Notes: generated from the letters alone by a model not told the origin. A stretch of 64,000 nt of DNA from an uncultured bacterium (GCA_937935355.1 CALGYR010000100.1:3566-67565), one strand, 5' to 3'; shown: positions 4,241 through 56,570, counted from the stretch's first letter. Numbers and translations: made by a program.

Positions 4241-4361
4241 GCTCACCGCTGAGTCGCGGAGACGCAGAGACAGGATGCTGTCCGCGGCTGAGGCCTGCCC
4301 CATCAAAAGCCCTCGGCCACGTTCTGGAGGCAACTCTGCGACTCTGCGCCTCGGCGGTGAA
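4241..4361. repeat. family C hairpin element (GAGACGCGGAG-type arms, conserved loop)
   Basis: 'tcaccgctgagtcgcggagacgcagagac...tgtccgcggctgagg...ctctgcgactctgcgcctcggcggtgaa'. Confidence 0.75.
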
Positions 4362-4396
4362 GGCGTCTCTCGAAGAGGCCCTAACGGAGGATAGGC

Positions 4397-5452
4397 ATGG
4401 ACAGAGTCAGGATCGGTTTCGTGGGCGTCGGCGGGATGGGCCAGTGCGCCCACCTGCGCAACTACGCGGTGCTCCCGGACTGCGAGGTGGTGGCCATCGC
4501 CGAGCTTCGCGAGAAGACCGCCCGGGCGGTGGCCGGGAAGTACAACGTGCCGCGAGTCTACCGCTCGCATGAGGAGATGCTCGGACAGGAGCGGCTCGAC
4601 GGCATCGTCGCCAGCCAGCCGTTCGGCCGCCACGGCGTGCTGGTGCCGGGGCTGCTCGAGGCCGGCGTGCCGGTCTTCATCGAGAAGCCCCTGGCCGGCT
4701 GCATCGAGGCGGGCGAGAAGATCCTCTCGGCGCTCGCCCGGAGCAAGGCCTGGGTGATGGTCGGCTACCACAAGCGCAGCGACCCGGCCACCGCCGCGGC
4801 CAGGGCCGAAATCGACCGCCTGAAGAGCACCGGCGAGCTCGGCGGGCTCAAGTACGTGCGCATCCTGATGCCGGCCGGCGACTGGATCGCCGGCGGCTAC
4901 AGCGAGCTCATCAGCATCAAGGAGGACGCCAAGCCCGAGCTGGCCTGGGACGCGCCGGCCTCGGACATGTCCGCCGAGCTCTTCAAGCAGTACACCGCCT
5001 TCGTGAACTACTACATCCACCAGGTGAACCTGATGCGCTTCCTGCTCGGCGAGAGCTACAGGGTGACCTACGCCGACCCCTCGGGCGTGGTCTTCGCCGG
5101 CCAGAGCGCGAGCGGCGTCGCCTGCGTCATCGAGATGTCGCCCTACCGCACGACGGTCGACTGGCAGGAGTCGGCGCTGGTGGCCTTCGAGAAGGGCTAC
5201 GTGAAGCTCGAACTCCCGGCGCCGCTGGCCCACAACCGCCCGGGCCGCGTCGAGATCTTCAGGGATCCGAGCAAGGAAACTGCGCCTCAGACCGTCGTCC
5301 CGCAGCTGCCCTGGGTCCATGCCATGAAGCAGCAGGCGGCGAACTTCATCGCCGCGATCCGCGGCGAGAGGAGGCCGCCCTGCGACGCCGCCGAGGCGCT
5401 CGAGGACCTCAAGGTCGCCCGCGAGTACACCCGGCTCTGGAAGGGAGCGTGA
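4397..5452 (+). CDS. Gfo/Idh/MocA family oxidoreductase
   Basis: N-terminal Rossmann motif 'RIGFVGVGGMGQ..H' followed by 'EKPLA' and 'GYHKR'. The RBS 'ggaggataggc' precedes the ATG. Confidence 0.85.
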   Translation: MDRVRIGFVGVGGMGQCAHLRNYAVLPDCEVVAIAELREKTARAVAGKYNVPRVYRSHEEMLGQERLDGIVASQPFGRHGVLVPGLLEAGVPVFIEKPLAGCIEAGEKILSALARSKAWVMVGYHKRSDPATAAARAEIDRLKSTGELGGLKYVRILMPAGDWIAGGYSELISIKEDAKPELAWDAPASDMSAELFKQYTAFVNYYIHQVNLMRFLLGESYRVTYADPSGVVFAGQSASGVACVIEMSPYRTTVDWQESALVAFEKGYVKLELPAPLAHNRPGRVEIFRDPSKETAPQTVVPQLPWVHAMKQQAANFIAAIRGERRPPCDAAEALEDLKVAREYTRLWKGA

Positions 5453-5456
5453 CCAC

Positions 5457-6557
5457 GTGCCCCTCAAGTGGAGGAAGGAACTCATCGCCGACGAGCGCTA
5501 CGAGTCGGCCGGGGTCTTCGACGTCGACGGCGACGGAGTGCCCGACATCGTTTCCGGCGCCTGGTGGTACAAGGGCCCGGACTTCAAGCAGGCCTTCAAG
5601 ATCGGCGAAGTCCGGGCCGAGGGCGAGTACTTCGACGACTTCTCGACCATCCCCATGGACGTCAACGGCGACGGCCGCCTCGACTTCATCACCGGCGGCT
5701 GGTGGGGCAACACCCTGCGTTGGCGCGAGAACCCCGGCGAGTACGACCCGAAGAAGAAGCCCTGGCCCGAGCACGTCATCGCCGAGACCGGCAACATCGA
5801 GACCACTCGTGCCTGGGACGTCGACGGCGACGGCGAGCTCGAGATCGTGCCCAACACCCCCAACGGGCCGCTCGTGGCCTACAAGCTCGTCCGCGATGCG
5901 AGCGGCAAGGGCACCGGGAAGTTCGCGGGTTACAAGCTCTGGAGCGCGAAGCAGGGCCACGGCCTGGGCTTCGGCGACATCGACGGCGACGGGCGGGGAG
6001 AGTTCATCCTGAACACCGGTTGGTTGAAGGCCCCGGCCGCCGGGCTCTTCTCCGGCGAGTGGACCTTCCACGAGGAGTTCAAGCTGATGCCCTGGGCGGC
6101 GAGCGTCCCGGTCCTGGTGGTCGACTTGAACGGCGACGGCCGCAGCGAGCTCATCGTCGGCAACGCCCACGGCTACGGCCTCGACTGGTGGGAGCAGTCC
6201 CCCGAGGCGGGCGGCAGGCGCTCCTGGAAGAAGCACCCCATCGACCCCTGGAACGCCCAGTACCACGACCTCCAGTGGGCGGACATCGACGGCGACGGGC
6301 AAGCCGAGCTCGTGACCGGCAAGCGCCACCGCGCCCACAACGGCAACGACATCGGCGAGGCGGACGACGTCGGCCTCTACTATTTCAAGTGGACGGGCGA
6401 AAGCTTCGCCAAGCAGGTCATCGACTACGGCCCGATCCGACAGGGCAAGGGCTGCGGCATCTTCTTCCAGTTGGCCGACCTGTCAGGCACCGGGCGGCTG
6501 GACATCGTGGCACCGGGGAAGGACGGGCTCTACGTCTTCCGAAACCTGGGGCTGTAG
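5457..6557 (+). CDS. FG-GAP/VCBS repeat-containing protein
   Basis: Repeated 'DVDGDG', 'DIDGDG' and 'DLNGDG' calcium-binding FG-GAP motifs. The start lies 5 bp after the oxidoreductase stop, suggesting an operon. Confidence 0.8.
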   Translation: MPLKWRKELIADERYESAGVFDVDGDGVPDIVSGAWWYKGPDFKQAFKIGEVRAEGEYFDDFSTIPMDVNGDGRLDFITGGWWGNTLRWRENPGEYDPKKKPWPEHVIAETGNIETTRAWDVDGDGELEIVPNTPNGPLVAYKLVRDASGKGTGKFAGYKLWSAKQGHGLGFGDIDGDGRGEFILNTGWLKAPAAGLFSGEWTFHEEFKLMPWAASVPVLVVDLNGDGRSELIVGNAHGYGLDWWEQSPEAGGRRSWKKHPIDPWNAQYHDLQWADIDGDGQAELVTGKRHRAHNGNDIGEADDVGLYYFKWTGESFAKQVIDYGPIRQGKGCGIFFQLADLSGTGRLDIVAPGKDGLYVFRNLGL

Positions 6558-6574
6558 GCACAAGATGGATCCCC

Positions 6575-6706
6575 ACCACAGAGCACACGGAGGGCACAGA
6601 GGACGGCCACAGTTGCTCATCTGCGGAGACACGGCCATGCCGCCCAAGGCTCTTGCCACAGTGAAAAGTCACGGTCGTCCTCCGTGTCCTCTGTGTCCTC
6701 TGTGGT
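6575..6706. repeat. family D hairpin (CACAGAGG-type arms)
   Basis: 'ccacagagcacacggagggcacagaggacgg-N68-cgtcctccgtgtcctctgtgtcctctgtgg'. Confidence 0.75.
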
Positions 6707-6766
6707 GAAGATCGCAGTTGTAGCCTTGGACGTTTCTCGAAACGGCCCTGGGAGGATTCCGGAGTC

Positions 6767-7885
6767 ATGACCAACCGCGAGAGACTCGTCGGGACCCTGA
6801 TCGGCCGGCCGGTCGACCGCGCGCCGCTGCCCTGGTGGATGGGTTTCAGTCCCTGGGGCGAGACGCTCGAGCGCTGGCGCCGGGAGTCGGGAGACCCGAG
6901 CCTGGACGTCCGCGCGCGGCTGGGCTTCGAGCCATTCTTCGCGGCGGTCCCGGCCGAGTACGGGCCCTTCCCGCGCTTCGAGAGGCGCGTCCTCGAGGAG
7001 ACTGCAGAGCACGCGACCTTCACCGACTGGCGCGGCATCACCGTCCGCCAGCGGAAGGGCTCGAGCGACATGCCGGAGTTCGTCGACCATCCGGTGAAGG
7101 GGCCCGACGACTGGAAGCGCTACAAGGAGGAGCGGCTGCTCCCGCGCGTCGAGGAGCGCCTGGCCGCGCTGCCGGAGTGGCTGGCCAGGGTTACGCCGGA
7201 GACGGCCGTGCAGGTCGGGGTCTTCCCCTGGGGCGTATTCGGCACGGCGCGCGACCTGCTCGGCGCCGAGGAACTGCTGGTCGGCTTCTACTCCGAGCCG
7301 GAGATGGTCCGCGACATCATGGAGACGAACGTCAGCCTGTGGCTGGCGCTATACGAGCGGATCGCCGATCACGTCCGGATCGACCACATCCACGTCTGGG
7401 AGGACATGTCGGGCCGGCAGGGCAGCCTGATCTCCCCGGCGATGGCCGAGGACTTCATGATGCCGCAGTACGACCGCATCGCCGACTTCGCCCGGCGCCG
7501 CGGCGTGCCGGTGGTCTCGGTGGACTCCGACGGGCAGGTCGACGAGCTCGTGCCGCTCATGATGCGCCACGGGGTCAACGCCTTCATGCCCTTCGAGGTC
7601 CAGGCCGGCTCGGACGTCGAGGAGTTCGGCCGGCGCTACCCCGGGATCGGCCTATTCGGCGGGCTCGACAAGCGCGCGCTGGCCGGTGGCCGGGCCGAAA
7701 TGCACCGCGAGCTCGACCGCGCCGAGCGGTTGCTGGCCCGCGGCCGGTGGGTGCCGGGCTTCGACCACCTCATCCCGCCCGAGGCGTCCTGGGAGAACTT
7801 CAGCTGGTTCGTAGGCGAGCTTCGGAAGCTGGTTATGCAGGCGGCCGGCGCCGCCCCCGCCACTGGCGCGGCGAGCACTTCATGA
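6767..7885 (+). CDS. uroporphyrinogen decarboxylase (URO-D) family protein, MtaA/CmuA-like methyltransferase family
   Basis: URO-D fold signatures, including 'HIHVWEDMSGRQGSLISP' and 'VDSDGQVDELVPLMMRHGVNAFMPFE'. Confidence 0.75.
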   Translation: MTNRERLVGTLIGRPVDRAPLPWWMGFSPWGETLERWRRESGDPSLDVRARLGFEPFFAAVPAEYGPFPRFERRVLEETAEHATFTDWRGITVRQRKGSSDMPEFVDHPVKGPDDWKRYKEERLLPRVEERLAALPEWLARVTPETAVQVGVFPWGVFGTARDLLGAEELLVGFYSEPEMVRDIMETNVSLWLALYERIADHVRIDHIHVWEDMSGRQGSLISPAMAEDFMMPQYDRIADFARRRGVPVVSVDSDGQVDELVPLMMRHGVNAFMPFEVQAGSDVEEFGRRYPGIGLFGGLDKRALAGGRAEMHRELDRAERLLARGRWVPGFDHLIPPEASWENFSWFVGELRKLVMQAAGAAPATGAASTS

Positions 7886-8747
7886 CCCGCTGGAAGTGGC
7901 GGTTGAAGCTCGAGAGGGTGGGGTAGCCCACCCGGCCGGCCACGTCCAGCACCCGCAGGCTGGTGCTCTCCAGGAGCGTCGTCGCCATCTGAAGGCGCAG
8001 ATAGGTTAGATAGTCGCGCGGGCTGCGCCCCGTCGCCCGGTGGAACATCCGGCGCAGGTTGCTCTCGCTCGTGGCGCAGAGCTCGGCGAGCTCGGCCATC
8101 CCCACCGGCTCGGCGTAAGTCCGCGAGAGGTGCTCGAGCGCCGGGGCGATGGCCTCGGCTGGACCGGCCCGCTCGCGCGGTGTCGCGTCAGGCTCGGCTC
8201 CCGGCAGCCGCTGGAGCAGACCCATGGCCGCCAGCACCAGCCCCCGGACCACCGTCCGGTGACCGGGCCGGGCGCCTCCGCCGGCGGCCTCCAACTCGGC
8301 GACGAGCTGCCTGACGGCCCCGACCAACTCCGGATGGGCGCCCGGCTTCACGATGTTCGGGAAGCCCGGTCCGCCGAGCGGGGCGATGCGCAGCGCCTCT
8401 CGGTCGTCGCTTGCGGCGCTCAGGAGCTTGGCGGGGTCGAGCATTACGAAGCTCCAGGAACTGCCCGTGTCGGGCGCGCTCTGGGCCCGGTGCATCTCGC
8501 GGTCGTTGATCACCGACACGTCGCCGGATGCGAAAGGCAGGACCTTGTCCTCGACCACGAAGATGCCGGCGCCCTGGTGGCAGTAGCCCAGTTCCAGGCA
8601 GTCGTGCAGGTGCAGCCCGGTGATGGGCTCGGTCGAGGGGGAATGGCGCCTGCCCATGGCTATCGGGAAGTCAGCTGGCAGCACGGACGGCATGAACTGC
8701 TGCTCGGCCGGCTGTCGTGAGCGATTCTGCACGGTTTTTGGCCGCAT
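7833..8747 (-). CDS. AraC family transcriptional regulator (cupin N-terminal domain)
   Basis: C-terminal AraC HTH 'MAELAELCATSESNLRRMFHRATGRSPRDYLTYLRLQMATTLL'. The true start may be the internal Met near 8693. The 3' end overlaps the convergent URO-D gene. Confidence 0.75.
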   Translation of the reverse strand: MRPKTVQNRSRQPAEQQFMPSVLPADFPIAMGRRHSPSTEPITGLHLHDCLELGYCHQGAGIFVVEDKVLPFASGDVSVINDREMHRAQSAPDTGSSWSFVMLDPAKLLSAASDDREALRIAPLGGPGFPNIVKPGAHPELVGAVRQLVAELEAAGGGARPGHRTVVRGLVLAAMGLLQRLPGAEPDATPRERAGPAEAIAPALEHLSRTYAEPVGMAELAELCATSESNLRRMFHRATGRSPRDYLTYLRLQMATTLLESTSLRVLDVAGRVGYPTLSSFNRHFQRVMKCSPRQWRGRRRPPA

Positions 8748-8814
8748 CTGCGTGGACCTCCGCCAATACGGCAGTGTAAGCTATACCGAGACGAGCGCAA
8801 GTCCCGTGGGTGGT

Positions 8815-8900
8815 CAACCACAAAGTCACCAAGGCACAAAGGGGCACAAAGCAGAAAAAGGCGTTCCTCTTGGTGTCTCTTCGTGTCTTGGTGTCTTTGG
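8815..8900. repeat. family D hairpin (CACAAAGG variant)
   Basis: 'ccacaaagtcaccaaggcacaaaggggcacaaag-N18-ctcttggtgtctcttcgtgtcttggtgtctttgggg'. Confidence 0.7.
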
Positions 8901-8928
8901 GGTAAGGAGAGAATTGGGAGGAGAGAAG

Positions 8929-10230
8929 ATGGCTTACCCCAAGGTGGCGGACATCAAGAAGACGGCCGAGCTGTTGGAACTCTACAGCCAGCTCCAGCAC
9001 GAGTACGGGGCCAGGGGCGTCGAGCGCGAGCTTGCCGGCGTGCGCCGGGCGATGGACGCGGGCCTGAAGCGTCTGCGCGCACTGCCGGCCGACGCGAAGC
9101 TCGCGGCCAGAGAGCCCAACCGCCTCGCCGACATCAAGCGGCTCCGCCCGGCCGGCCCGCGCCGGATGTGGAAGACGTTCGACCGTGCCGGGTACCTCGA
9201 CCGGCTGGAGGGCGCGCTGCTCGCGCGCATGGCCGGCTGCACGCTCGGGGCGCCGGTCGAATTCTGGGACATCGAGAAGATGCAGGAACTGGCCCGTGAG
9301 AACGGCCAGAACTTCCCGCCCACCGAATATTGGAGCCGCGTGCCGGAGCCTTTCCGGAAGCGCTACGGCTTCAGCGAGCGCCGGGACTACACCCGCGACC
9401 GGATGAACGGCGTCCCGGTGGACGACGACATCGTCTACACGCTCCTCGGGCTCCTGGTGGTCGAGGAGTACGGTCCGCGTTTCTCTGTCGCGGAGAACGG
9501 CAGGGCCTGGCTCAAGCACCTGCCCTACGCCTGCACCGCCGAGAAGGTGGCCCTCGAGAACCTGGGCAGGGGCGTGGCCGCGATGCAGGCCGGCTGGCGC
9601 GACAACCCCTACTGCGAGTGGATCGGCGCCGACATCCGCTCCGACCCCTGGGGCTACATGGCCCCCGGCATGCCGGAGTTCGCCGCTGACATGGCCTGGC
9701 GCGACGCCTACCTCAGCCACCGCCGCAACGGCGTCTACGGCGAGATGTACTTCTCGGCGGCCATCGCCGCGGCCTTCGCGGTGGACGACCCGGTCGAGGC
9801 CCTGAGGATCGGGCTCACCGAGATCCCGCGCGACTGCGCCATGGCCGGGGCGGTGCGCTGGGCGCTGAAGGTTGCCCCGAAGATCCGCAACTGGCGCCAG
9901 GCCCGCGACGCCGCCGAGCGGAAGTTCGCCGGCATGCACCGGGTGCACACCATCATCAACGCGGTGCTGACCATCTGGGGCATCACCATCGGCCGGACCG
10001 ACGTTTCGAAGGTGATCGGCGAGACCGTGGCCATGGGCCTGGACAACGACTGCACGGCGGCGACGGCCGGCTCCATCGTGGGCGCAGTGGTGGGCAGGAA
10101 GGGCGTTCCCGCGAAGTGGACCAAGCCCTTCAACAACACCGTCCACTCGTACCTCAAGACCTGCAGGAAGTTCCGGATCGACGATCTCCTCCGGCGCTTC
10201 GCGAAGCAGGCCGAGAGGGTGCACGGGTAG
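8929..10230 (+). CDS. ADP-ribosylglycohydrolase family protein
   Basis: The ATG at 8929 follows the RBS 'ggaggagagaag'. Conserved motifs include 'GCTLGAPVEF...DDDIVYTL' and 'GLDNDCTAATAGSIVGA' (ADP-ribosylglycohydrolase Mg-binding D/T-rich motifs). Confidence 0.8.
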   Translation: MAYPKVADIKKTAELLELYSQLQHEYGARGVERELAGVRRAMDAGLKRLRALPADAKLAAREPNRLADIKRLRPAGPRRMWKTFDRAGYLDRLEGALLARMAGCTLGAPVEFWDIEKMQELARENGQNFPPTEYWSRVPEPFRKRYGFSERRDYTRDRMNGVPVDDDIVYTLLGLLVVEEYGPRFSVAENGRAWLKHLPYACTAEKVALENLGRGVAAMQAGWRDNPYCEWIGADIRSDPWGYMAPGMPEFAADMAWRDAYLSHRRNGVYGEMYFSAAIAAAFAVDDPVEALRIGLTEIPRDCAMAGAVRWALKVAPKIRNWRQARDAAERKFAGMHRVHTIINAVLTIWGITIGRTDVSKVIGETVAMGLDNDCTAATAGSIVGAVVGRKGVPAKWTKPFNNTVHSYLKTCRKFRIDDLLRRFAKQAERVHG

Positions 10231-10275
10231 GGGGTGGAAGGCTGGAAGGCTGGAAGGCTGGAAGGTTGGAAGGGC
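10231..10275. repeat. family A oligomer repeat (GGCTGGAAGG x4 direct)
   Basis: 'gggtggaaggctggaaggctggaaggctggaaggttggaagg' lies between the ADP-ribosylglycohydrolase stop and the URO-D start. Confidence 0.7.
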
Positions 10276-10296: not shown

Positions 10297-11334
10297 GTGA
10301 ACGCCAAGGAAAACGCCCTGCGGATCATCCGCTTCGACCGCCCGGAGCGGATCGTGGGCGGGCCGCCATGTCACGGGCTCGCCTACCTGGGCTGCAACCA
10401 CGAGGGCTACGAGGGCGGCGGCCACCACCTGCCGGTGGGCTCGAAGTGGACGGACATCTGGGGGACCGTCTGGCACCGCGAGCACGAGGGCGTGATGGGG
10501 TTCCCTCGCGGCAATCCGCTGGCCGACCTGGTCGGCGGACTGGCCCGTTTCCATTGGCCGTCTCCCGACGACGAGCGCATCTGCGGCCCGCTCCGGGAGC
10601 AGGCCCGGGCCTGGAACCGCGAGGAGTCTTTCCTGACCGGCCGGCATCGGGACACGCTCTGGGAGAAGGGCTACATGCTCGTGGGCATGGAGGAGCTGAT
10701 GTGCTCCTTCCACACCGAGCCGGGAGCGGTGCGCGAGCTCTTCCGCGGCATCATGGACTTCCAGCTGGGCATGGCCCGGCACTACCTGGAGCTGGGCGTC
10801 GAGATGGTCTCGATGGGCGACGACCTCGGCACCCAGTCGGGGCTGCTGCTCTCGCCGGAGATCCTCGAGGAGTTCCTGGTGCCGGAGTACCGCCGGCTCT
10901 TCGACCTGTACCGGAGCCGCGGCGTCATGATCGGCTTCCACAGCTGCGGGCACGTCACGCCGGTCCTGGAGATGTTCATGGACCTGGGCGTGGACGTCCT
11001 GAACCCGATACAGGCCACGGCCAACGACCTGGCCGAGGTCCGGCGCATCACCCGGGGGCGGATGGCCCTGCAGGGCGGGGTCTCCTCGGGGCTGGTCATG
11101 GAGGGCCCGACGGAGCGGATCCGGGCGGAGGCCCGCCGCTGCATGCGGCTGCTCGGCAGCGACGGGGGATACTTCTGCGGTCCCGACCAGGGCATGCCCT
11201 ACCCGCAGGAGCACCTCGACGCGCTCAAGGACGAGATCGGGCGCTTCGGCCGGTATCCGCTGTGCGAGGCAGGAGATCGCGCCGCGTCGGTCCCGGGCCA
11301 TTGCGGGAAGGAGGTTTCACCGCCGAGGCGCTGA
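10297..11334 (+). CDS. URO-D family protein (second paralog)
   Basis: Motifs 'DIWGTVWHRE', 'GDDLGTQSGLLLSPE' and 'GFHSCGHVTPVLEMFMDLGVDVLNPIQ'. A GTG start at 10297 is preferred. The upstream in-frame ATG at 10234 would translate the GGCTGGAAGG repeat. Confidence 0.7.
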   Translation: MNAKENALRIIRFDRPERIVGGPPCHGLAYLGCNHEGYEGGGHHLPVGSKWTDIWGTVWHREHEGVMGFPRGNPLADLVGGLARFHWPSPDDERICGPLREQARAWNREESFLTGRHRDTLWEKGYMLVGMEELMCSFHTEPGAVRELFRGIMDFQLGMARHYLELGVEMVSMGDDLGTQSGLLLSPEILEEFLVPEYRRLFDLYRSRGVMIGFHSCGHVTPVLEMFMDLGVDVLNPIQATANDLAEVRRITRGRMALQGGVSSGLVMEGPTERIRAEARRCMRLLGSDGGYFCGPDQGMPYPQEHLDALKDEIGRFGRYPLCEAGDRAASVPGHCGKEVSPPRR

Positions 11335-11435
11335 GGCGCAGAGCGCGCTCATGAGCGCGGCGGACGTTCCTTGGCGGCCTGGGTCCTGGCCGCGGACGGA
11401 ATCTTCTTTCTGCGTCTCCGCGCCTCGGCGGTGAA
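11317..11435. repeat. family C element whose left arm overlaps the stop codon of the URO-D paralog
   Basis: 'tcaccgccgaggcgctgaggcgcagagcg...ggtcctggccgcggacgg...ctgcgtctccgcgcctcggcggtgaa'. Confidence 0.6.
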
Positions 11436-11513
11436 ATCGGCCTCCTGCCGTGGTCCTGGTTCCCGGTCGCAGGCAGTTGACCGGGCCGCGGCTCGGTGGT
11501 TATACTCCGAGCC

Positions 11514-16369: not shown

Positions 16370-16498
16370 CGATCGTCTCCTCCTGGTTATGGCACTGGCG
16401 CGGCGGCTCTTCCGGAGCCGTCGGAGCGATTCTAGCCCCGCTGGGGAGGTTCGCAAGGAACGTGTGGGCACCAACTGCCGGTAATGAGAGGAGCCGGG

Positions 16499-16619
16499 CT
16501 CACCGCCGAGACGCGGAGGCGCCGAGACTGGATTTTGTCCGCGGCTCAGGTTCTTGCCCGCAGAAGCCGTCCGCCGCGTTCCTGAGCCTGCTCTGCGCCT
16601 CTGTGTCTCCGCGGTGAAC
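16499..16619. repeat. family C hairpin element
   Basis: 'tcaccgccgagacgcggaggcgccgagac...tgtccgcggctcagg...ctctgcgcctctgtgtctccgcggtgaa'. The loop core is shared with the 4241 copy. Confidence 0.75.
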
Positions 16620-16698
16620 CCGGGCCACAAAGAACCGCGCGGCCGGATCTCTCCGGCCGCGCGGGCTCTGCCTGGGTTCGTTCTGGACTGCCGCGGCT

Positions 16699-24189: not shown

Positions 24190-24240
24190 TCAGCGCAGAG
24201 ACGCGGAGGTCGCAGAGCGAGCGCGGAGAGAGCGATGGGC
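24190..24240. repeat. family C partial (left-arm-like)
   Basis: 'ctcagcgcagagacgcggaggtcgcagagcgagcgcggagag'. Confidence 0.4.
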
Positions 24241-26299: not shown

Positions 26300-26420
26300 C
26301 TGCGAACGGCGAACCGCAGAATGTCGAATGTCGAAGTCAGAATTACGAACGACGTGGAGTGGCCGGGAGTTGCCACTTCGACATTCGTCATTCGGTGTTC
26401 TGCGGTTCTGCGGTTTGCTG
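26300..26420. repeat. family B hairpin (AATGTCGAA-type arms)
   Basis: 'gaaccgcagaatgtcgaatgtcgaag-N42-cttcgacattcgtcattcggtgttctgcggttc'. Confidence 0.7.
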
Positions 26421-29483: not shown

Positions 29484-29640
29484 CTGCGGCACCGAACGTT
29501 CAACATGCAACACGCAACATTCGACACGCAATGAATCAGCGGAAGGGGCCGATTCATCGGTTTCATTCCTCAAGATCGTGCTCCTTCCCTGATTTGCTCT
29601 GTATGTTGCATGTTGCATGTTGGACGTTGCGTGTTCGTCT
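29484..29640. repeat. family B-like hairpin (CAACATGCAAC arms) with an inner stem-loop
   Basis: 'gaacgttcaacatgcaacacgcaacattcgacacgcaatgaatc...gattcat...tgttgcatgttgcatgttggacgttgcgtgttcg'. Confidence 0.7.
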
Positions 29641-31096: not shown

Positions 31097-32949
31097 TCGA
31101 CTTCAGAAGAATTCTGGTGAGCGGCCGGTTCCGCCTGGCATTCGCCATCGCCGGGGTGCTGCTTCTCGGCGGCCTGGCGACGATCGTTCTGCACGAGTCC
31201 GGCGGCAGCCATGCGGCCGAATCGTCCGTGGCCGGCAAGGCCGGGGCGCAGTACTACACCTGCGGCATGCACCCCTGGGTGATTCTGCCGAAGCCCGGCG
31301 ACTGCCCGATCTGCCACATGAAGCTCGTGCCCCTCGATCCCGCGAAGTTCACCGGCCAGATCGCCATCGACCCGGTGGTCGTCCAGAACATCGGCGTCCG
31401 AGTCGCGCCGGCGACGGTCGGAGAGGTGACCCGCACCGTCCGGACGGTCGGTTCGGTCGAATACGACGAGACCCGCGTCCGGGACGTGAACCTCAAGATC
31501 GCCGGCTGGATCGAGAAGCTGCACGTCGACTCCCTCGGTCAGCCGGTGAAGAAGGGCGAGCCGCTCCTCGAGATCTACTCGCCCGAGCTCTACTCGGCCG
31601 AGGCCGAGTATCTCGCGGCCTTTCGGCGCGCCAAGGCCGGGCAGAACGCGGACAGGGCCGACAGGATGGACGCCGAGTTGCTCGCGGCCGCCCGGAAGCG
31701 CCTGGAGTACTTCGACGTCCCGGCCGGCGAGGTCCGCGAGCTCGAGCGGACCGGCGAGGTCAGGAAGGCCCTGACCATCCGCAGCCCCTTCGACGGCGTG
31801 GTCGTCGAGAAGATGGCCCAGGAGGGCATGAAGGCCGATGCCGCCATGCGCCTCTACCGCATCGCCGACCTCTCGACCGTCTGGGTGCAGGCCGCGGTCT
31901 ACGAGCAGCAACTGCCCTACGTCCGGGAGGGCCAGGCGGCGGCCATGACGCTGCCCTACCTGCCCGGCCGGAAGTTCGACGGCAAGGTGGCCTACGTCTA
32001 CCCCTACCTGGACAGGAAGCTCCGCCAGGTGAACGTGCGCCTGGAGTTCGCGAACCCCGATCTCACGCTCAAGCCCGGGATGTTCGCGAGCGTCGAGTTG
32101 CGCGGCGCCGAGGCGAAGCAGGGCCTGCTCGTCCCGCGCGAGGCGGTGATCGACACCGGCGAGCGGCAGGTGGCCTTCGTGAGCCTGGGCAAGGGGAGGT
32201 TCGAGCCCCGCGACGTGAAGCTCGGCGTCGAGGCCGACGGCGGCAAGGTCGAGATCCTCGAGGGCCTGAAGCCCGGCGAGATGGTGGTCACCAGCGGCCA
32301 GTTCCTGCTCGACAGCGAGTCGCGCCTGCGCGAGGCGCTGGCCAGGATGATGGCGGGGACGACGGGAGGGGTGGAAGGTGGAGGGTGGAAGGTGGAAGGT
32401 TCCGCCTCGCAAGCCTCCACCATCCACCATCCACCTTCCACCCTGCTTGTCCTTCCGGCGCCCGCCGGCAAGGCGCTCGCCGGGATGCTCGACGGCTACT
32501 TTGCGATCGGTGCGAAGCTGGCCGACGACACCGCTGCGGGCATCGCCGAGCCCGCGCGACAAGTGGCCTCGAGCGCCGAGGCTCTGCTCAAGGTGGAGAT
32601 CCCCGGCGACCCGCACTTCTGGCACAAGCACATGGAGGCCGGCGAGGTCCGCGCCAGGGCGCTGGAGCTGGCCGGCGCCGGCGATCTGGCCAAGGCCCGC
32701 TCGGTCTTCGCCGACCTGGGCACGGCGCTCGAAAAGCTGCTCAAGGCGACGGGCGTCCCCGCTGGCTACGGGAAGGAGGTCTACGAACTCCATTGCCCGA
32801 TGTATCGGGAGGAGCAGGGCGGCGCCGTCTGGCTGCAGACCAACCAGGATGTCACCAACCCATACTACGGCAAGGCCATGCTGAACTGCGGGGACGTGGT
32901 GGGGGCTGTCCCCTCCCACGCCGCTCCGGACGGGAACGGGAAGAAGTAG
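31093..32949 (+). CDS. cusB: efflux RND periplasmic adaptor (CusB-like) with N-terminal heavy-metal-binding motif and C-terminal DUF3347-like domain
   Basis: 'YYTCGMHPWVILPKPGDCPICHMKL' (HMBD), then an MFP barrel/lipoyl region and a C-terminal 'YYGKAMLNCG'. A GGTGGAAGG hairpin repeat sits in frame in the linker at 32368-32444. Confidence 0.75.
   Translation: MIDFRRILVSGRFRLAFAIAGVLLLGGLATIVLHESGGSHAAESSVAGKAGAQYYTCGMHPWVILPKPGDCPICHMKLVPLDPAKFTGQIAIDPVVVQNIGVRVAPATVGEVTRTVRTVGSVEYDETRVRDVNLKIAGWIEKLHVDSLGQPVKKGEPLLEIYSPELYSAEAEYLAAFRRAKAGQNADRADRMDAELLAAARKRLEYFDVPAGEVRELERTGEVRKALTIRSPFDGVVVEKMAQEGMKADAAMRLYRIADLSTVWVQAAVYEQQLPYVREGQAAAMTLPYLPGRKFDGKVAYVYPYLDRKLRQVNVRLEFANPDLTLKPGMFASVELRGAEAKQGLLVPREAVIDTGERQVAFVSLGKGRFEPRDVKLGVEADGGKVEILEGLKPGEMVVTSGQFLLDSESRLREALARMMAGTTGGVEGGGWKVEGSASQASTIHHPPSTLLVLPAPAGKALAGMLDGYFAIGAKLADDTAAGIAEPARQVASSAEALLKVEIPGDPHFWHKHMEAGEVRARALELAGAGDLAKARSVFADLGTALEKLLKATGVPAGYGKEVYELHCPMYREEQGGAVWLQTNQDVTNPYYGKAMLNCGDVVGAVPSHAAPDGNGKK
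32368..32444. repeat. family A hairpin (GGTGGAAGG arms) inside the cusB linker
   Basis: 'ggtggaaggtggagggtggaaggtggaagg-N17-ccaccatccaccatccaccttccacc'. Confidence 0.75.
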
Positions 32950-47673: not shown

Positions 47674-47682
47674 GGGAACAAG

Positions 47683-50608: not shown

Positions 50609-50609
50609 G

Positions 50610-50640
50610 GTTCTCAACCACGAAACACACGAAATACACG
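50610..50640. repeat. three direct 9-bp CACGAAANN units
   Basis: 'cacgaaacacacgaaatacacgaaaga', immediately after the stop of the small TM gene. Confidence 0.55.
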
Positions 50641-50739
50641 AAAGAGGCTTCGAGAGCCGCCGAACGGTGAGCAGGAAGTGTTTCGCCGAGGTTAGCTACC
50701 AAGCCTTCGTGAGGGGCCGGAACCGGGGACATGGAGACC

Positions 50740-50860
50740 CGGTCGTTGTTGTTGTTCACACAGAGCCGCGGAGCCACGGAGAACGGCAAACCAGGCCGTT
50801 GTTGTCCTCTGTGTCTCTGCGTCTCCGTGTGAGAAACAGCCGTTGCTGTTGCCATCATCC
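50740..50860. repeat. family D hairpin
   Basis: 'cacacagagccgcggagccacggagaacgg-N25-gtcctctgtgtctctgcgtctccgtgtgagaa'. Confidence 0.65.
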
Positions 50861-50866
50861 TGCACG

Positions 50867-51685: not shown

Positions 51686-52078
51686 GTCCTTCCCCTGCCA
51701 GGCCGGCCGGCTGCGTGGTCCCCGGCTTCGCCCTCTCCGGCGTGGCCCCGCCGGAGCCCTTCGAGCGCCTCGATTCTCGCCCGGGTCTCCTCCGACAGGT
51801 TCTCCACATGTTCCGGGCCCAGGAGGTCGTGCTGCTTCAACTGGAACAGCTTGGCGAAGAGCGTCGACCGGCTCCAGTCGTCGAAGCAGTCGGCGACGAT
51901 GCGGTTGGAGTCCTTGAGGTGCCGGTAGAGCCGGCGGTATTTGTCGGCTTCGGACTGCCCGGCGGCCGCGAGGATGTCCATCGACTGCCGGTTGATGCGC
52001 CCGAACAGGGCGGCGAGCAGCTCCTCCTGGGCCTTCCGCATGTACTTCCAGTCGCGCTCGGGGATGTCTCTGGACATG
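51682..52078 (-). CDS. hypothetical protein (132 aa)
   Basis: Starts at 'MSRDIPERDWKYMRKAQEEL'. Coupled to its flanking genes by overlaps. Confidence 0.45.
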
Positions 52079-52079
52079 C

Positions 52080-52607
52080 TTAGCCTCCCGTTCTCTCCGC
52101 ACCCCGGCCGCCCCTCGCCCGGGTCCACTCCCGGGATGGCGGGGGCTCCGCTATGGGCGGCTCGATGCCTGCCGGGAACCATCCGCCGCGGGTCATTTGC
52201 AGCTCCTTGTAGGTTTTGAACATGAAGGCATGTTTGAGGACTTCGGCCGGAGGCCTGGGGTGCTTCATGTTCTCCCGCCAGTGCTTCTTCTCCAGTGTGC
52301 CGAAGACCAGATAGTCGCCGCCGATCAAGTCGGGGTCCAACTCCACGAACAGGTCGGTGAGCAGGCGTTCGATCTCGTGCTTGTGGGCGGCCAACAGGTC
52401 GCAGCCCCGGCAGTAGCGGCAGGTGTAGTTGAGGGCGACCATCCGCTTCTCGCCGACGTCGATCAGCAGGGGAAGCTTGCGCTGTCCGGTCTTGCGGTGG
52501 CAGACAGGGCAGATCGAGAGCCGCACGTCGGGATAGGGGTTCATGATGAACCCGTATCTGCGGGGCGGCTCCCCTGCACTCGGATCCCAGGCCTTGGCCA
52601 TATCCAT
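52080..52607 (-). CDS. hypothetical zinc-ribbon protein
   Basis: 'CPVCHRK...CRYCRGC', a four-Cys arrangement. Confidence 0.5.
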   Translation of the reverse strand: MDMAKAWDPSAGEPPRRYGFIMNPYPDVRLSICPVCHRKTGQRKLPLLIDVGEKRMVALNYTCRYCRGCDLLAAHKHEIERLLTDLFVELDPDLIGGDYLVFGTLEKKHWRENMKHPRPPAEVLKHAFMFKTYKELQMTRGGWFPAGIEPPIAEPPPSREWTRARGGRGAERTGG

Positions 52608-52623
52608 ATGTTGTCTCCTGTCG

Positions 52624-53370
52624 CTACTTGCGTTGTTCTTCGGCGCCCCCCGGTCCCCGGTCCTCCATGTTCACCTCAAGGCCGTTCTCCCGGCACCACT
52701 CGAGAATGGCCGCTCGGGTCGCCTCATTCTCGAAATCGTGCCACTTCTGGAGCAGGCCGTGGCGCTCGAGCAGGTCCTTGTAGCGGCCGTAGGCGCCGCG
52801 CCGGCTGAAAATCCGGCCGACCTCCCCGGCGAGCTGCGGCGCGTGCCGGTTCACGAAGTTCCCGACCAGGTCGGCGCCCAGGTCCAGGTCGTTCTTGTGA
52901 GGGATCGAGAGGTAGTCTTCCCCGCCCGCGTCCTCGGGCATCTCGTCCATGTCCGCCATCTCGGAGGAGAAGAAGGTCTGCCCCGTCTTCCGGTGGATGC
53001 AGGCGGAGTGATCGCCGTACGGTGCAGAACCCACGAAGTCGAACGCCATTTCGACTTCGGAAAACTTGATGGCCATGCGCTTCTCCTTTGACAGGTTGTC
53101 CGGCTTGGAAACTCCAGCGTCCGGGGGCTGCTGCGCGGCTGCGTCTCTGTTCAACTCGTACTGGTAGAGCTCCTCCCACATCTCGTTCTGGGCAAGCCAG
53201 ACGGGGTCGGCGTTCCTGGCGACGAATTCGTCGACGGGCATCCCGTCGATGGTCGGCGGACGCCTTACCCGCTTCTGCTTGCCGTTGACGAAGATGGTCA
53301 TGAACTCGAGCCGGCGCCGCCGTTTCTCGGCCTTCTCCTTGGCGGTCAGCTTGCGCTTGCGGCGTGACAC
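52624..53370 (-). CDS. hypothetical protein with Lys/Arg-rich N-terminus
   Basis: 'MSRRKRKLTAKEKAEKRRRRLEF'. No recognisable domain. Confidence 0.5.
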   Translation of the reverse strand: MSRRKRKLTAKEKAEKRRRRLEFMTIFVNGKQKRVRRPPTIDGMPVDEFVARNADPVWLAQNEMWEELYQYELNRDAAAQQPPDAGVSKPDNLSKEKRMAIKFSEVEMAFDFVGSAPYGDHSACIHRKTGQTFFSSEMADMDEMPEDAGGEDYLSIPHKNDLDLGADLVGNFVNRHAPQLAGEVGRIFSRRGAYGRYKDLLERHGLLQKWHDFENEATRAAILEWCRENGLEVNMEDRGPGGAEEQRK

Positions 53371-53379
53371 GGGGTGCCG

Positions 53380-54078
53380 TCAGCCGTTCTTGGGCCAGGC
53401 TTCCAAGCGTTCAAGCCACGTCCGGAAGAGCGGGCACTGAGCTCTGATGGCCTCCAACCCTATCTCCAGGACGGCTAAGGTCCCCATGACGGGCTTCTCA
53501 TAGCCGGGCAGCAGCGATTCCACGCGCTTCGACGGGGCCGTCTGAGGGGAATCGTTCACCTCCTCGGGGCTGGCGAAATCGTCCCGTATAGCCTGGAACG
53601 CCGGAGCCAGATCGGGGTGTCCGATTCCGCCGGCGAACCGGGAGCAGTCGCTGAAGAGCAGCCCCTCGAACTCGTGCATCATCACATAGGGAATGAACCG
53701 GCCCGGGTTGAAATCCTCGCCCATCCCTCTACAGACATCCGCCAGCAGGGCGTTCTCGACGGTTGAAGCTTTCTGTGGAAACGGCAAGCGGCCCGCATCG
53801 GCCCGACCGGGCCAGGCCCTGGGACCGCTGCAGGGCAGTCCGTAGTAGTCCACCATGGTCGTTACCAGGCATTCCCCATCCTGCTTGAGGTGGTTCCGAA
53901 TGTCGCCCCGTACTTCCCCCCAGCCGCGGATGCCACCGCGGCGTTGGCGCTGCCGTGCGTTGCCGAGGAGCCGGGCGCCGACCGCCGTGTAGCCATGCTC
54001 GTAAAGGTGGGCCGCGAGCACCTGAGTGACGAAGGATTCCTCCGTCTCGCCTTCCACGTGGACCAGCAATCTAGCCAT
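53380..54078 (-). CDS. DUF4276 family protein (Toprim-like)
   Basis: N-terminal 'MARLLVHVEGETEESFV' resembles the DUF4276/Toprim 'VEGxxE' signature. An 8 bp overlap with the upstream ATPase. Confidence 0.65.
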   Translation of the reverse strand: MARLLVHVEGETEESFVTQVLAAHLYEHGYTAVGARLLGNARQRQRRGGIRGWGEVRGDIRNHLKQDGECLVTTMVDYYGLPCSGPRAWPGRADAGRLPFPQKASTVENALLADVCRGMGEDFNPGRFIPYVMMHEFEGLLFSDCSRFAGGIGHPDLAPAFQAIRDDFASPEEVNDSPQTAPSKRVESLLPGYEKPVMGTLAVLEIGLEAIRAQCPLFRTWLERLEAWPKNG

Positions 54079-55189
54079 GGGCGCGTTCCGCCCCAGGCCG
54101 GCCGCCGAACTCGTTCTTTTCCCAGAGCTGGCCGAGGCTGTAGTTCTCGAGCCATGTGGCCAGCTTGGCGGACTCCAGACGGGTGAACTCGGTTCCCCCG
54201 TGTGCCCGGTCGGCCACCAGCACATCCTCCGGTGCAAAATGGTCCAGGAGGAGAGGTGATTGGGTGGAGACGATGGCCTGTGTCTTGATCGAGGCCTGCT
54301 TGATCAGCGAGGCCAGCATGGTTATGGCGTAGGGATGCAGGCCCAGCTCCGGCTCGTCCACGAGAATAACCGAAGGTCTGTGGGCCTCCGGCTGCATGAA
54401 GAGGGTCGTCAGCGCGATGAAACGCAGCGTCCCGTCCGAGAGCGAGGAGGCGTCGAAGTAGGCCTCGGAGCCCTTGTGCCGCCACTCCAGACGGATCTTG
54501 TCCGGATTGAGCTTCTGCGGCTCCAGCATGAAGTCGTCGAAGAACGGGGTGACCAACTGGACCGTCTTGCGGATGAGGTTGTAGGATGTCTGGTGCTTGA
54601 GCCGAAGATAGTAGAGGAAGGCGGCGAGGTTCGAGCCGTCCGGGCGGAGGTAACGGTTGTCGTTCACGTCGGCCGTCTTCTTCATGGGCGACGAATCGCT
54701 GGTGTCGTGAAAATGGTAGAGCCGCCAGCTGCCGAGGCGGAAGCGAACGTACTTGGCGGTTCGCTCGCAGCCCGGATCGCTGATGCCAGCCTCCGCGCCC
54801 CTCGGCGCGATCCCGCTCTCATAGGGCTTTTCGTAGTGGGCCTTGTCCCAGTAGTAGCCGGTCTCGGCGGTACGGCGCAATTGATCGCCGGCTGCGGGCT
54901 CCAGGGTTATGGCGTACTGGTTGACGCCTTCCTGGAAGGAGATGTGAATCTCCAGCTTCTGAGTGGTCTTCGAGCCGAAGTGCAGCACCTTGTCGGCGCC
55001 GCCGGCCTTGGCGACGTAGTCCTGCAGGTGCCCCTCCCGGATGGCGTGGAGGAAGGCGAAGACGCCGATGAAGTTGGACTTGCCCGAGCCGTTGGGGCCG
55101 ATGACCACGTTGATGGGCCCGAGCTTCAGATTCTCGACGGAAGCGATGCTCTTGAAGCCCTTCACGGTGATGCTGTCTAGCTCAGCCAT
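54071..55189 (-). CDS. AAA family ATPase (AAA_21/SMC-like ABC ATPase)
   Basis: Walker A 'VIGPNGSGKSNF' and Walker B/D-loop 'ILVDEPELGLHP'. It is the usual partner of DUF4276. Confidence 0.8.
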   Translation of the reverse strand: MAELDSITVKGFKSIASVENLKLGPINVVIGPNGSGKSNFIGVFAFLHAIREGHLQDYVAKAGGADKVLHFGSKTTQKLEIHISFQEGVNQYAITLEPAAGDQLRRTAETGYYWDKAHYEKPYESGIAPRGAEAGISDPGCERTAKYVRFRLGSWRLYHFHDTSDSSPMKKTADVNDNRYLRPDGSNLAAFLYYLRLKHQTSYNLIRKTVQLVTPFFDDFMLEPQKLNPDKIRLEWRHKGSEAYFDASSLSDGTLRFIALTTLFMQPEAHRPSVILVDEPELGLHPYAITMLASLIKQASIKTQAIVSTQSPLLLDHFAPEDVLVADRAHGGTEFTRLESAKLATWLENYSLGQLWEKNEFGGRPGAERAHG

Positions 55190-55408
55190 TGCGCGATTCC
55201 TCTGCCGGACCGTCCGGCATTGTAGCGGGCCGGGCGGCGGTTGCATGGACATGATACTTCGGGCAGGAGGGCGGTCAAGGATGATCATCTGTCGGCGCCA
55301 TGCCCGCGGCCTGGAGGACCAACACGCCCATACCGATCGGCCGCCCCCGGGATGATTCCCCCCTCCGCCCGTCGTTTAGTCAGTGCGCCGAGGGGGAGCC
55401 GCACTACT

Positions 55409-56389
55409 ATGGAAACCGCCTTCGAACGCGCCGTAACTGCCGCCATCGGCGACGAGCTGCACGCCGTCGAGATCGACACCATCCAGGCCAACCTGGGGCT
55501 GCGCTGCGACCTGGCCTGCGCGCACTGCCACCTGGACGCCTCTCCGGACCGGGTCGAGTCCATGGAGTGGCCGGTGATGGCACAGCTGGTGGAGGCCGCC
55601 CAGAACTCGGGCTGCCGCCAAGTCGAGCTCACCGGCGCCGCGCCCGAGCTGCATCCCGACTTCCGGCGGTTGGTGGCGGCGCTCCGCGAGGCCGAGGTTG
55701 GCGTGGAGTTGCGCACCAACTTCACGGCGCTGCTCGCCGAGGGCAACGAGGACCTGCCGGAGTTCCTGCGCGATCAGGGCGTGCGGGTGGTCGGCTCGCT
55801 GCCGTGCTACATGGAGGAGAACGTCGACGCCCAGAGGGGGGAGGGCGTCTTCGCGCTCAGCATGCAGGCGATGCGGCGGCTCAACGAGCTCGGCTACGGC
55901 CGCGGCATCGACCTGTCTCTCGACCTCGTCCACAACCCGGTCGGCGCCTTTCTGCCGCCCAGGCAGGAGGTCCTGGAGGCCGACTATCGCCTGGAGCTTG
56001 ACCGCCGCTACGGCGTGAGCTTCAACCGCCTGTTCGTCATGAACAACTCCGCCATGGGCCGCTTCCTGACGGCGCTGCGCGAGCAGGGGCGGGAGGGCGT
56101 CTACCAGCGGCTGCTCGAGGAGTCCTTCAATCCGGCGACCCTCGACGGCCTGATGTGCCGCCACCTGGTGGCCGTCCGCTGGGACGGGACGATCTTCGAC
56201 TGCGACTTCAACCTGGCGCTCGGCCTGCCCGTCCACCACGCGGTCCCGAACCGACTGGAGGAGTTCGAGCCTCTGGAACTGGCCGGCCGCAAGATCATGC
56301 TCGGAGAGCACTGCTTCGGCTGCGCCGCCGGCCACGGCTCGGGCTGCACAGGTGCACTCTCGGCGACCACGGCGGGGGAGAGGATGTGA
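55409..56389 (+). CDS. radical SAM/Cys-rich domain protein (ArsS-like, TIGR04167-type)
   Basis: Radical SAM 'CDLACAHCH' and a C-terminal Cys-rich 'CFGCAAGHGSGCTGAL'. Confidence 0.75.
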   Translation: METAFERAVTAAIGDELHAVEIDTIQANLGLRCDLACAHCHLDASPDRVESMEWPVMAQLVEAAQNSGCRQVELTGAAPELHPDFRRLVAALREAEVGVELRTNFTALLAEGNEDLPEFLRDQGVRVVGSLPCYMEENVDAQRGEGVFALSMQAMRRLNELGYGRGIDLSLDLVHNPVGAFLPPRQEVLEADYRLELDRRYGVSFNRLFVMNNSAMGRFLTALREQGREGVYQRLLEESFNPATLDGLMCRHLVAVRWDGTIFDCDFNLALGLPVHHAVPNRLEEFEPLELAGRKIMLGEHCFGCAAGHGSGCTGALSATTAGERM

Positions 56390-56393
56390 GGCC

Positions 56394-56570
56394 TGGTGGA
56401 AGGTGGAAGGTTGAAGGTGGAGGTGAACCGGGTTCGTTAGGCTGAAGCCGGAGGGCGGACGCGCGGAGCCGCCCTCGGCTTCCATCTTTCACCATCCATC
56501 TTCCACCGTAAACCTCCACCCTCCACCTTCCACCCTCCACCTGCCACCTCCCACCCGCCAATCTTCCTTC
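56394..56570. repeat. family A composite hairpin (GGTGGAAGG arms flanking an inner perfect hairpin)
   Basis: Left arm 'ggtggaaggtggaaggttgaaggtggaggtg'. Inner stem 'gaagccgagggcgg...ccgccctcggcttc'. Right arm 'caccatccatcttccacc...ctccaccctccaccttccaccctccacctgccacctcccacc'. Confidence 0.75.

Follow-up and report, generated by a model that had tools for sequence, protein, structure and literature searches.

Tandem-word hairpin elements in an uncultured Planctomycetota genome and their likeness to the shells of rRNA intervening sequences and GxxExxY genes

Intervening sequences (IVSs) of 23S rRNA genes occur, with or without an open reading frame (ORF) for the S23p protein, in Coxiella, Leptospira, Salmonella and Rhizobiales. 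In Coxiella, the IVS has a 28-bp stem formed by terminal inverted repeats and an S23p ORF in the loop, is excised by RNase III, and contains three tandem GACAGAT heptamers, the number of which varies between strains; both the origin and the mobility of IVSs are stated to be open in that literature (PMC4990558). Tandem heptamers are also known from the short tandemly repeated repetitive (STRR) or TAACTGA repeats of cyanobacteria, Beggiatoaceae and Bacteroidetes, which form intergenic arrays of 2-6 or more heptamers with variant units, are suspected of horizontal spread and were described as direct arrays, with one inverted set among the 170 of that study (PMC4679880). Here, we describe hairpin elements of 85-170 nt with arms composed of short tandem words, found in a 64,000-nt stretch of DNA from an uncultured bacterium (GCA_937935355.1 CALGYR010000100.1:3566-67565), which is referred to below as the window. 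No description of these elements was found in the searchable literature. We consider it probable, though well short of settled, that they are ORF-less copies of a widespread, essentially undescribed class of IVS-like selfish hairpin cassettes.

To our knowledge, the origin and mobility of rRNA IVSs have been open since 1990. The genes for S23p and for the GxxExxY protein, both of which are found between similar arms elsewhere, belong to the commonest small orphan genes of bacteria; we know of no function for either protein and of no solved structure for GxxExxY, while a structure of S23p has been solved. Judged from its sequence, the window is part of an uncultured Planctomycetota metagenome-assembled genome (MAG), and the nearest available relative by polynucleotide phosphorylase (PNPase) is a MAG labelled Planctomycetota (86% PNPase identity). 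The window has a GC content of 63-72% and contains no tRNA genes and no Rfam family at the gathering score. About 70 kb of this genome was readable, and gene context was taken from the gene and Pfam lists of the window.

Architecture and dispersal of the hairpins

All 13 loci at which the first-pass annotation, made from the window sequence alone, had placed such elements were confirmed by inverted-repeat and tandem-repeat scans and by direct reading. Its count of at least 13 copies holds for loci but not for complete elements, as ten are complete hairpins with tandem-word arms and three (10233-10275, ~24192-24235 and ~50615-50645) are single arms with no inverted partner. The RNA folding check that it had suggested bore out the hairpins, with minimum free energy (MFE) z-scores, calculated on the + strand against shuffled sequence, between -5.4 and -9.6 for the ten and ~0 for the single arms, which do not fold. 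Arms of the complete hairpins have 3-5 words in tandem, of 7-9 nt each, and loops are ~14-90 nt, replacing the 7-11 nt words and 17-70 nt spacers given earlier. Word periods are 7 nt in families A (GGTGGAA), D (GAATGTC) and E (CAACAYG), and 8 nt (GAGNCGCN) or 9 nt (NNCACRGAG) in families B and C, which start with a TTCACC(R)C.GAG anchor. The common architecture, and with it a dispersed class of insertion-type palindromic elements, was recognised correctly.

These arrays are far more frequent than chance predicts. Twelve tandem arrays with an inverted copy within 300 nt are present in the window, compared to none in each of 30 second-order Markov simulations of it, and GGTGGAAGG occurs 8 times where 0.63 occurrences are expected. 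The GGTGGAA word is present three times in the 64 kb, and the overall density is approximately one element per 5-10 kb.

The three copies of family C (4225..4388, 11292..11459 and 16496..16624, designated C1, C2 and C3) align over ~130 nt including the loop, and are found at unrelated loci in both orientations. Alignment of the loop core gave z-scores of 8.0, 7.1 and 3.9, and values of ~0 in the wrong orientation. The conserved loop that had been noticed in two copies is thus real and is also present, inverted, in the third at 11292. As the copies are homologous through the loop and one of them is inverted, the family C element is a true dispersed repeat, which moves in one piece. Comparison of the loops of the window elements with all of the fetched loci revealed no homologues outside the window.

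Related arms and their cargo genes in other genomes

A scan with the family C arm pattern detected arms of the family B/C type in at least 120 metagenome contigs from soil, peat and sediment (GC 42-72%), and ~45 of the arm hits had a clear inverted partner 5-800 nt away at the score cut-off chosen. Where arms are spaced 370-550 nt apart, the gap is filled exactly by one PDDEXK_3/GxxExxY ORF (PF13366, E = 1e-38; TIGR04256), and all 11 of the GxxExxY ORFs in 2 Mb of fetched loci adjoin a C-type arm. The GxxExxY protein had no match in PDB or PADLOC. Fifteen further hairpins, of the heptamer class described below, are present on the contigs with C-type arms.

Several named genera carry the same arrangement. 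In Bacteroides finegoldii, TTCACCACAGAG GACGCAGAG GACACGGAG separates radA from a GxxExxY gene and CTCTGTGAC CTCTGTGTC CTCTGTGGTGAA separates that gene from the next one; these are the words of window family B, as found in the copy at 6566..6716. A GxxExxY gene lies between arms of the same kind in an annotated isolate record of Bernardetia, and Gemmatirosa has a complete hairpin beside its GxxExxY gene. In Treponema, the repeat is a plain 11-nt inverted one. Sphingomonas parapaucimobilis has a cassette with CGCGAAG words between fabD and fabG, in which the cargo gene points the same way as the genes on either side and no room is left for a promoter. The fabD-fabG spacer of S. paeninsulae and several other alphaproteobacteria contains no cassette, and the one in S. 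parapaucimobilis is therefore an insertion. Inverted C(R)C.GAG word arrays and the TTCACC anchor at both ends are shared by window families B and C and four of the fetched loci (L095, L107, L212 and L214). Families B and C, with their 8-9-nt words, probably represent the shells that elsewhere carry the gene for this PD-(D/E)XK nuclease.

A composite subfamily was also seen in metagenome contigs (L155, L127, L129, L134, L143, L159 and L164). Here, a further conserved layer (AAGTCAAAACCGGAGAGCGCNGAGGNGGCNGAGG), also paired, comes after the C-type outer arms, and the foldbacks are 300-375 nt with dG down to ~-225 kcal/mol.

The taxonomic spread of the architecture was assessed using the loci (47-53% identical, none from a close relative) among the matches listed in a PNPase scan of genome contigs, which were reused as an unbiased sample (the GTDB pnp set). 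Eight of these loci have the same architecture, seven labelled Planctomycetota and one labelled as a delta-proteobacterial MAG. Loci of other phyla in this set provided no convincing case, and the match in L043, an AT-rich MAG of unassigned phylum, looks like low-complexity noise. Three word-armed hairpins are present in 22 kb of the nearest relative. The hairpins of the set and the relative are mostly of period 7 with their own word at each locus, and another Planctomycetota MAG (L020) has a hairpin with the GAATGTC word of family D. No word array seen is longer than a 160-nt run of heptamers (GACGGTA/GTCCGTG variants) at positions 119-279 of L148, with an inverted partner ~120 nt off.

Heptamer arms also enclose a gene in some genomes. 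In L162, (AGTCCGG)x3 arms flank a four-helix-bundle gene (23S_rRNA_IVP, PF05635) that is wedged between two ABC transporter genes. Four-helix-bundle genes with inverted word arrays were found on plasmids and chromids of Nostoc (GGGAAAA), Riemerella (AAGGTTY) and Azospirillum lipoferum (GACAGAG/GACGGAG). The Azospirillum copy is located within a large subunit (LSU) rRNA gene (Rfam, 2693 bits) and is therefore a genuine 23S IVS. In Pseudanabaena and Calothrix, the four-helix-bundle genes are flanked by heptamer arrays of the STRR type. The S23p protein forms homopentamers (PDB 2GSC). In architecture, families A, D and E match the shells that carry the S23p gene elsewhere, and a heptamer shell within helix 45 of 23S rRNA would correspond to the classical IVS.

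What is conserved in the arms was examined using their mismatches and free positions. C-type elements have conserved TT|CACC...GGTG|AA ends, and at the free positions one arm varies almost independently of the other (identity 0.37-0.67, compared to 0.27-0.57 expected). Arm mismatches include 85 transversions and 67 transitions in C-type elements, with no G-U strand polarity, and 42 transversions and 33 transitions in heptamer arms, again with no polarity. Mismatches in the heptamer arms cluster in one word phase (44 of 75, against a null mean of 34 and a maximum of 43 in 5000 trials). With free positions that are nearly independent and no G-U polarity, it is the sequence of the words that is conserved and not the pairing; selection on RNA structure, considered as an explanation, left no signal in either the wobble polarity or the co-variation of free positions. 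Adjacent direct repeats of the kind expected from target-site duplication are missing from 42 of 44 C-type elements, and the longest repeats within 30-nt flanks of 43-44 C-type elements are no commoner than in mismatched controls. The only excess detected in the flanks was of outer palindromic extensions, ~10% of the C-type elements being nested in an outer palindrome.

Insertion sites and origin of the hairpins

Insertion without target-site duplication occurs at the ends of genes, next to or inside hairpins, and in frame in permissive protein linkers. The first family A copy (A1, 32362..32450) is in frame within a CusB-like gene (31093-32949), in the linker ahead of the C-terminal domain, and the frame runs on into that domain. 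Across A1 (32353-32460), the GC content at third codon positions (GC3) falls from 0.9-1.0 to 0.67, and the linker has 31 aa of unrelated sequence where 19 homologues have 20 aa. The HemW gene of the nearest relative contains two in-frame hairpins, with GC3 down to 0.60-0.65 across them, and both insertions are missing from 7 homologues. Site 1 is filled in the relative and in a 73-80% identical homologue, with the same words but different free positions. In a third homologue (P0243), another insertion occupies this site, and its sequence ('VEGGRWTVEEGG...PPPSTFHPPP') resembles a translation of GGTGGAA-type words. At site 2, a perfect 22-bp simple hairpin is in frame in one genome, and in the other a hexamer-arm hairpin is nested at the hairpin apex. 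A clean pair of filled and empty sites was not obtained for any window element, as the only orthologous locus in the 86% relative has a different flanking gene order.

In the HemW gene of a related MAG (L229, ~6690-6750), the perfect in-frame 22-bp hairpin encodes the peptide KGSDP twice because the DNA is palindromic.

The cassette is a foldback, each arm having 3-5 tandem words with a conserved core of 5-7 nt and 1-2 free positions, and the loop being either short or filled exactly by one small gene. In the mechanism that we propose, an oligomeric protein would recognise the word arrays at several sites at once, with the cargo proteins active in cis or in trans, and propagation would depend on this recognition. 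By analogy with IVS and Correia stems, the long imperfect stem, once transcribed, might be an RNase III substrate or an inert stem-loop, making the insertion tolerable to the host, and slippage between words could allow the arms to grow and shrink with the stem kept.

A more inclusive proposal is possible but doubtful. It would unite 23S IVSs, S23p genes, GxxExxY genes, heptamer arrays of the cyanobacterial type and the planctomycete hairpins in one class of selfish word-armed cassettes, in which the words are putative binding tracts for the cargo protein (pentameric S23p or the nuclease). This protein would drive insertion without target-site duplication, with a preference for hairpin apices, gene ends and permissive RNA or protein loops, and ORF-less copies would be mobilised in trans.

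A number of observations weigh against a mobile cassette as the source of the window hairpins. Neither cargo gene was detected in the window, where both were sought by tblastn (with a PF05635 protein in the case of S23p), or within ~5 kb past its downstream end, and the ~70 kb read contains no master copy with matching words for any window family. ORF-less IVSs are known, and the missing PF05635 ORF does not exclude kinship with IVSs. The link between families A, D and E and S23p cassettes consists of shared architecture and examples from other taxa, without sequence homology. Not all cargo genes have inverted arrays, as the four-helix-bundle genes of Pseudanabaena and Gemmatirosa have direct arrays and the GxxExxY genes of Prevotella and a fusobacterium have direct flanking repeats. 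In CusB, the linker has been replaced with a net gain of 11 aa, which is not a clean insertion. Finally, the two GGTGGAA copies of family A have unrelated loops, and in most heptamer hairpins the words are specific to the locus and the loops are not homologous, so that for these hairpins local generation fits as well as mobility.

Local generation is the main rival. A short hairpin would grow by slippage in steps of 7-9 nt and template switching would copy each change to the other arm, giving every locus its own words with no movement between loci. The number of heptamers in the Coxiella IVS, which differs between strains (PMC4990558), would be explained in this way, as would the locus-specific words and unrelated loops of heptamer hairpins, the different word families at the same position of related HemW proteins (site 1), and the simple 22-bp hairpin in one relative with a nested hexamer-arm hairpin at its apex in the other (site 2). 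It does not account for family C, in which arms and loop are homologous at three unrelated loci in both orientations, for identical arm sequences in contigs ranging from 42% to 72% GC, or for words that recur at unlinked sites, such as GGTGGAA within the 64 kb and GAATGTC in another MAG. Moreover, correction by template switching should produce complementary arms, and the free positions are nearly independent. We therefore regard local generation as rather unlikely overall, although families A, D and E may have arisen in this way, perhaps in combination with mobility.

Selection for stem stability at each locus, the hairpins being terminators or stabilisers of 3'-ends and intercistronic regions, is very unlikely. 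The stems are very stable, 7 of the 13 loci are just past a stop codon or between co-directional genes, and the fold of the + strand, from which the window is mainly transcribed, is the more stable in 8 of 10 elements. However, the hairpins have no U-tract and are preceded by TT and followed by AA on both strands, the reverse of a terminator, and C3 directly follows a separate, canonical and conserved terminator; the earlier statement that these are not terminators is upheld. The remaining positions also fit poorly, with three loci in divergent regions, one in frame in cusB and two in frame in hemW of the relative, and the arm mismatches have neither a G-U bias nor strand polarity, the arm sequence and not the pairing being conserved across phyla.

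Still less probable is an origin as operator arrays, in which host transcription factors would bind to inverted site clusters and so regulate the neighbouring genes. Conserved word cores with free spacer positions would suit such sites, and two elements are located in divergent promoter regions beside genes for AraC-family regulators, but the same words are found beside unrelated genes in many phyla, in convergent regions, within coding sequences, and elsewhere around small selfish-looking genes, and the five or more words in 64 kb would need as many dedicated regulators. Assembly artefacts, named earlier as a potential refutation, and binning artefacts have a negligible probability even though the window is from a MAG and chimeric reads can create palindromes, as the sequence is 100% identical in three independent assemblies, namely NCBI MAG contig DAIPLX010000026.1 (GCA_036768975.1; contig coordinate = window coordinate + 3561), an ENA assembly and a Logan assembly, and the same architecture is found in complete genomes of cultured isolates.

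The selfish cassette thus remains the reading that we prefer. The hairpins create in-frame peptide insertions (CusB and HemW), can provide stop codons to genes, and can mislead gene callers and scans for noncoding RNA. If the interpretation is correct, IVSs would be a particular form of a more general element, which also invades operons and protein linkers, the word arrays would offer a concrete, testable recognition target for two orphan proteins (GxxExxY and S23p), and planctomycete genomes, at the density seen here, would be a natural system in which such cassettes could be studied.

Locations of the elements and comparison with known systems

The suggestion that several elements occupy divergent promoter regions applies to 3 of the 13 loci. 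The others are in co-directional or convergent gaps, except that one overlaps the 3'-end of a gene and one is in frame within a gene. Five of the complete elements come after a stop codon, in gaps that are either convergent or flanked by genes of the same direction. No strand is assigned to the copies of families A, B, D and E or to the mixed B/C copy. C1 (4225..4388, + strand; dG -80.4, z -5.5) is between a divergent AraC-type gene (-) and a GFO_IDH gene (+), and consists of an outer layer (4225-4242 and 4362-4388), a left arm TCACCGCTGAG TCGCGGAG ACGCAGAG (4243-4269), a loop core (~4270-4333) and a right arm (4334-4361). The family B copy (6566..6716; dG -84.8, z -8.2) begins 11 nt past the stop codon of an FG-GAP gene, upstream of a co-directional URO-D-like gene, and has arms of CACCACAGAG CACACGGAG GGCACAGAG and their complement around a 64-nt loop. 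A family B variant (8818..8906; z -6.4) with CACAAAG and CACCAAG words and the anchor CAACCACAAAG separates a divergent AraC-type gene from an ADP-ribosylglycohydrolase gene. The single arm at 10233..10275 (+ strand; (TGGAAGGC) x5, tandem-repeat score 71) begins at the stop codon of the upstream gene.

C2 (11292..11459; dG -120, z -9.1) is on the - strand, inverted relative to the other two copies. Its arms (11315-11342 and 11409-11436) are enclosed by an outer palindrome (11292-11314 and 11437-11459), and the left arm provides the final six codons and the stop codon (11332-11334) of a URO-D-like gene, the frame having been read by hand from the gene call. The region at 3241-11334 is made up of two similar adjacent modules, each with an AraC-type regulator divergent from an enzyme gene and a URO-D-like gene downstream; each divergent gap contains a word-armed hairpin, and each URO-D-like gene has one that adjoins or overlaps it.

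C3 (16496..16624, + strand; z -6.0) is between a STAS gene and a gene of the isocitrate/isopropylmalate dehydrogenase family, both on the - strand. It is 12 nt after a canonical terminator that is kept in the nearest relative, which has no C3, so that the family C element follows this terminator only in the window genome. The terminator, a GC stem with a T-run downstream of the STAS gene that follows pnp, is at ~16640-16680 (-) in the window, 12640-12680 in L208 and 12650-12690 in L205. At 17089-17193, the 3'-end of the PNPase gene contains GC-rich tandem repeats with periods of 18 and 39, which probably encode a low-complexity C-terminal tail of PNPase.

A single family C-like arm (24192..24235, approximately; + strand; z +0.6), TCAGCGCAGAG ACGCGGAG GTCGCAGAG CGAGCGCGGAG, is in a divergent intergenic region. 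The family D element (26304..26418; z -5.7), with GAATGTC arms within an outer GAACCGCAGAA/TTCTGCGGTTC layer, comes after an epimerase gene, where the flanking genes converge. The family E element (29488..29640; z -9.5), which has CAACAYG arms and an 82-nt loop with an inner hairpin, is between the genes for a CsoR-like repressor and the outer-membrane efflux protein of a cus-like operon. A1, described above, has (NGGTGGA) x4-5 per arm and a 14-nt loop (z -9.6). Both of these elements belong to a metal-efflux cluster (28632-37786) that encodes a YHS-domain protein, the CsoR-like repressor, an outer-membrane factor, CusB-like and CusA-like (ACR_tran) proteins, a cation-efflux protein and an HMBD protein, E preceding the outer-membrane gene and A1 lying within the cusB-like gene.

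The last single arm (50615..50645, approximately; + strand; z -0.2), TCAACCACGAAA CACACGAAA TACACGAAA, starts just past the stop codon that ends a + strand gene, in a gap between convergent genes. The mixed family B/C copy (50752..50836; z -5.4), with TTCACACAGAG CCGCGGAG CCACGGAG and their complement, is in a convergent intergenic region at the edge of a stretch of lower GC (41288-55189; 0.63-0.65 compared to ~0.69) that looks like a defence island. This stretch encodes HsdR/M/S of a type I restriction-modification system and an AAA_15/AAA_21 ATPase with DUF3696, and its opposite strand has a DUF4276 gene adjoining an SMC_N/AAA_21 ATPase; both elements are in the convergent gap between its + and - strand gene blocks. 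The second family A copy (56393..56562; dG -81.8/-94.1) is 6 nt past the stop codon of a radical SAM gene, upstream of a co-directional BatA gene, and has 4.6 GGTGGAA words on the left, ~10 words in two blocks on the right, and a loop of 59-87 nt with an inner hairpin.

Like the window elements, repetitive extragenic palindromes (REPs) and those miniature inverted-repeat transposable elements (MITEs) that are processed as RNA hairpins, such as the Neisseria Correia elements and the enterobacterial repetitive intergenic consensus (ERIC), are short palindromic repeats dispersed mostly between genes, and can be part of the transcripts of their neighbours. Beyond this likeness, the description as MITE- or REP-like in the first-pass annotation is not supported. 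Neither TA nor any other target-site duplication accompanies the window elements, whose arms consist of tandem words with free positions and not of unique sequence, and no ORFs other than GxxExxY and PF05635 were found between arms of this kind. As had been reported, the gene and Pfam lists include no transposase in or near the window, and no REP-associated tyrosine transposase (RAYT) or DDE transposase partner was seen in the ~70 kb. REPs and their doublets (REPINs) are palindromes of 20-40 nt with a terminal GTAG or CGTC tag (PMC3733652), while the window elements end in TTCACC... or word arrays, are 85-170 nt, and have neither tag. Membership of the CRISPR, REP and Correia groups was ruled out on their defining features; in agreement with the earlier view, contiguous units of 7-9 nt that pair with an inverted array are unlike a CRISPR, in which direct repeats of 24-48 nt alternate with unique spacers about as long. 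Rfam searches of the window and 17 loci at gathering and permissive thresholds returned only sub-threshold look-alikes of miRNA precursors.

Rickettsia palindromic elements are in-frame palindromic repeats in protein genes that are translated as an extra peptide and, as far as is known, are confined to Rickettsia and have no tandem words. The in-frame copies in CusB of the window and HemW of the relative resemble them, without any sequence relationship.

Period-7 arrays are common to STRRs and window families A, D and E, but the words differ and the window arrays are in inverted pairs; the three single arms would fit the STRR pattern. Direct arrays are also found around cargo genes for which the hairpin model offers no explanation. 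The Pseudanabaena gene (L223), located between cas6 and cas4, has 16 x CTAAAAG on one side and 9 x CCAAAAG on the other, and direct word arrays or direct repeats accompany the cargo genes of Gemmatirosa (L225), Fusobacteria bacterium ZRK30 (L216) and Prevotella nigrescens (L217).

Although no named family had been recognised in the window, the same architecture forms the shell of GxxExxY (TIGR04256/PF13366) and 23S_rRNA_IVP (PF05635) genes, including genuine 23S IVSs. In comparison with GxxExxY cassettes of metagenome contigs, Bacteroides, Bernardetia and Sphingomonas, the family B and C arms are the same down to the TTCACC(R)C.GAG anchor. The differences are that the window copies hold loops of 14-90 nt in place of the gene, and that family C spreads as a unit without an ORF and possesses a conserved loop core of 60 nt not seen in the cassettes.

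Unlike IVSs, which are inserted in helix 9, 25 or 45 of 23S rRNA, the window elements are outside rRNA (no rRNA was detected in the window by Rfam) and are intergenic, at gene ends or in frame in a protein gene. All of them are ORF-less, and excision by RNase III could not be harmless within a coding sequence. Both IVSs and the window elements are foldbacks with terminal inverted repeats and a long imperfect stem, and a loop that is short or contains one small ORF (PF05635). Both are sporadically distributed and regarded as selfish. Tandem heptamers are present in the stem region of IVSs, namely GACAGAT in that of Coxiella (PMC4990558) and, in the 23S gene of Azospirillum, GACAGAG/GACGGAG, and the long closing stem formed by terminal inverted repeats, 28 bp in Coxiella (PMC4990558), is found in ten hairpins of the window.

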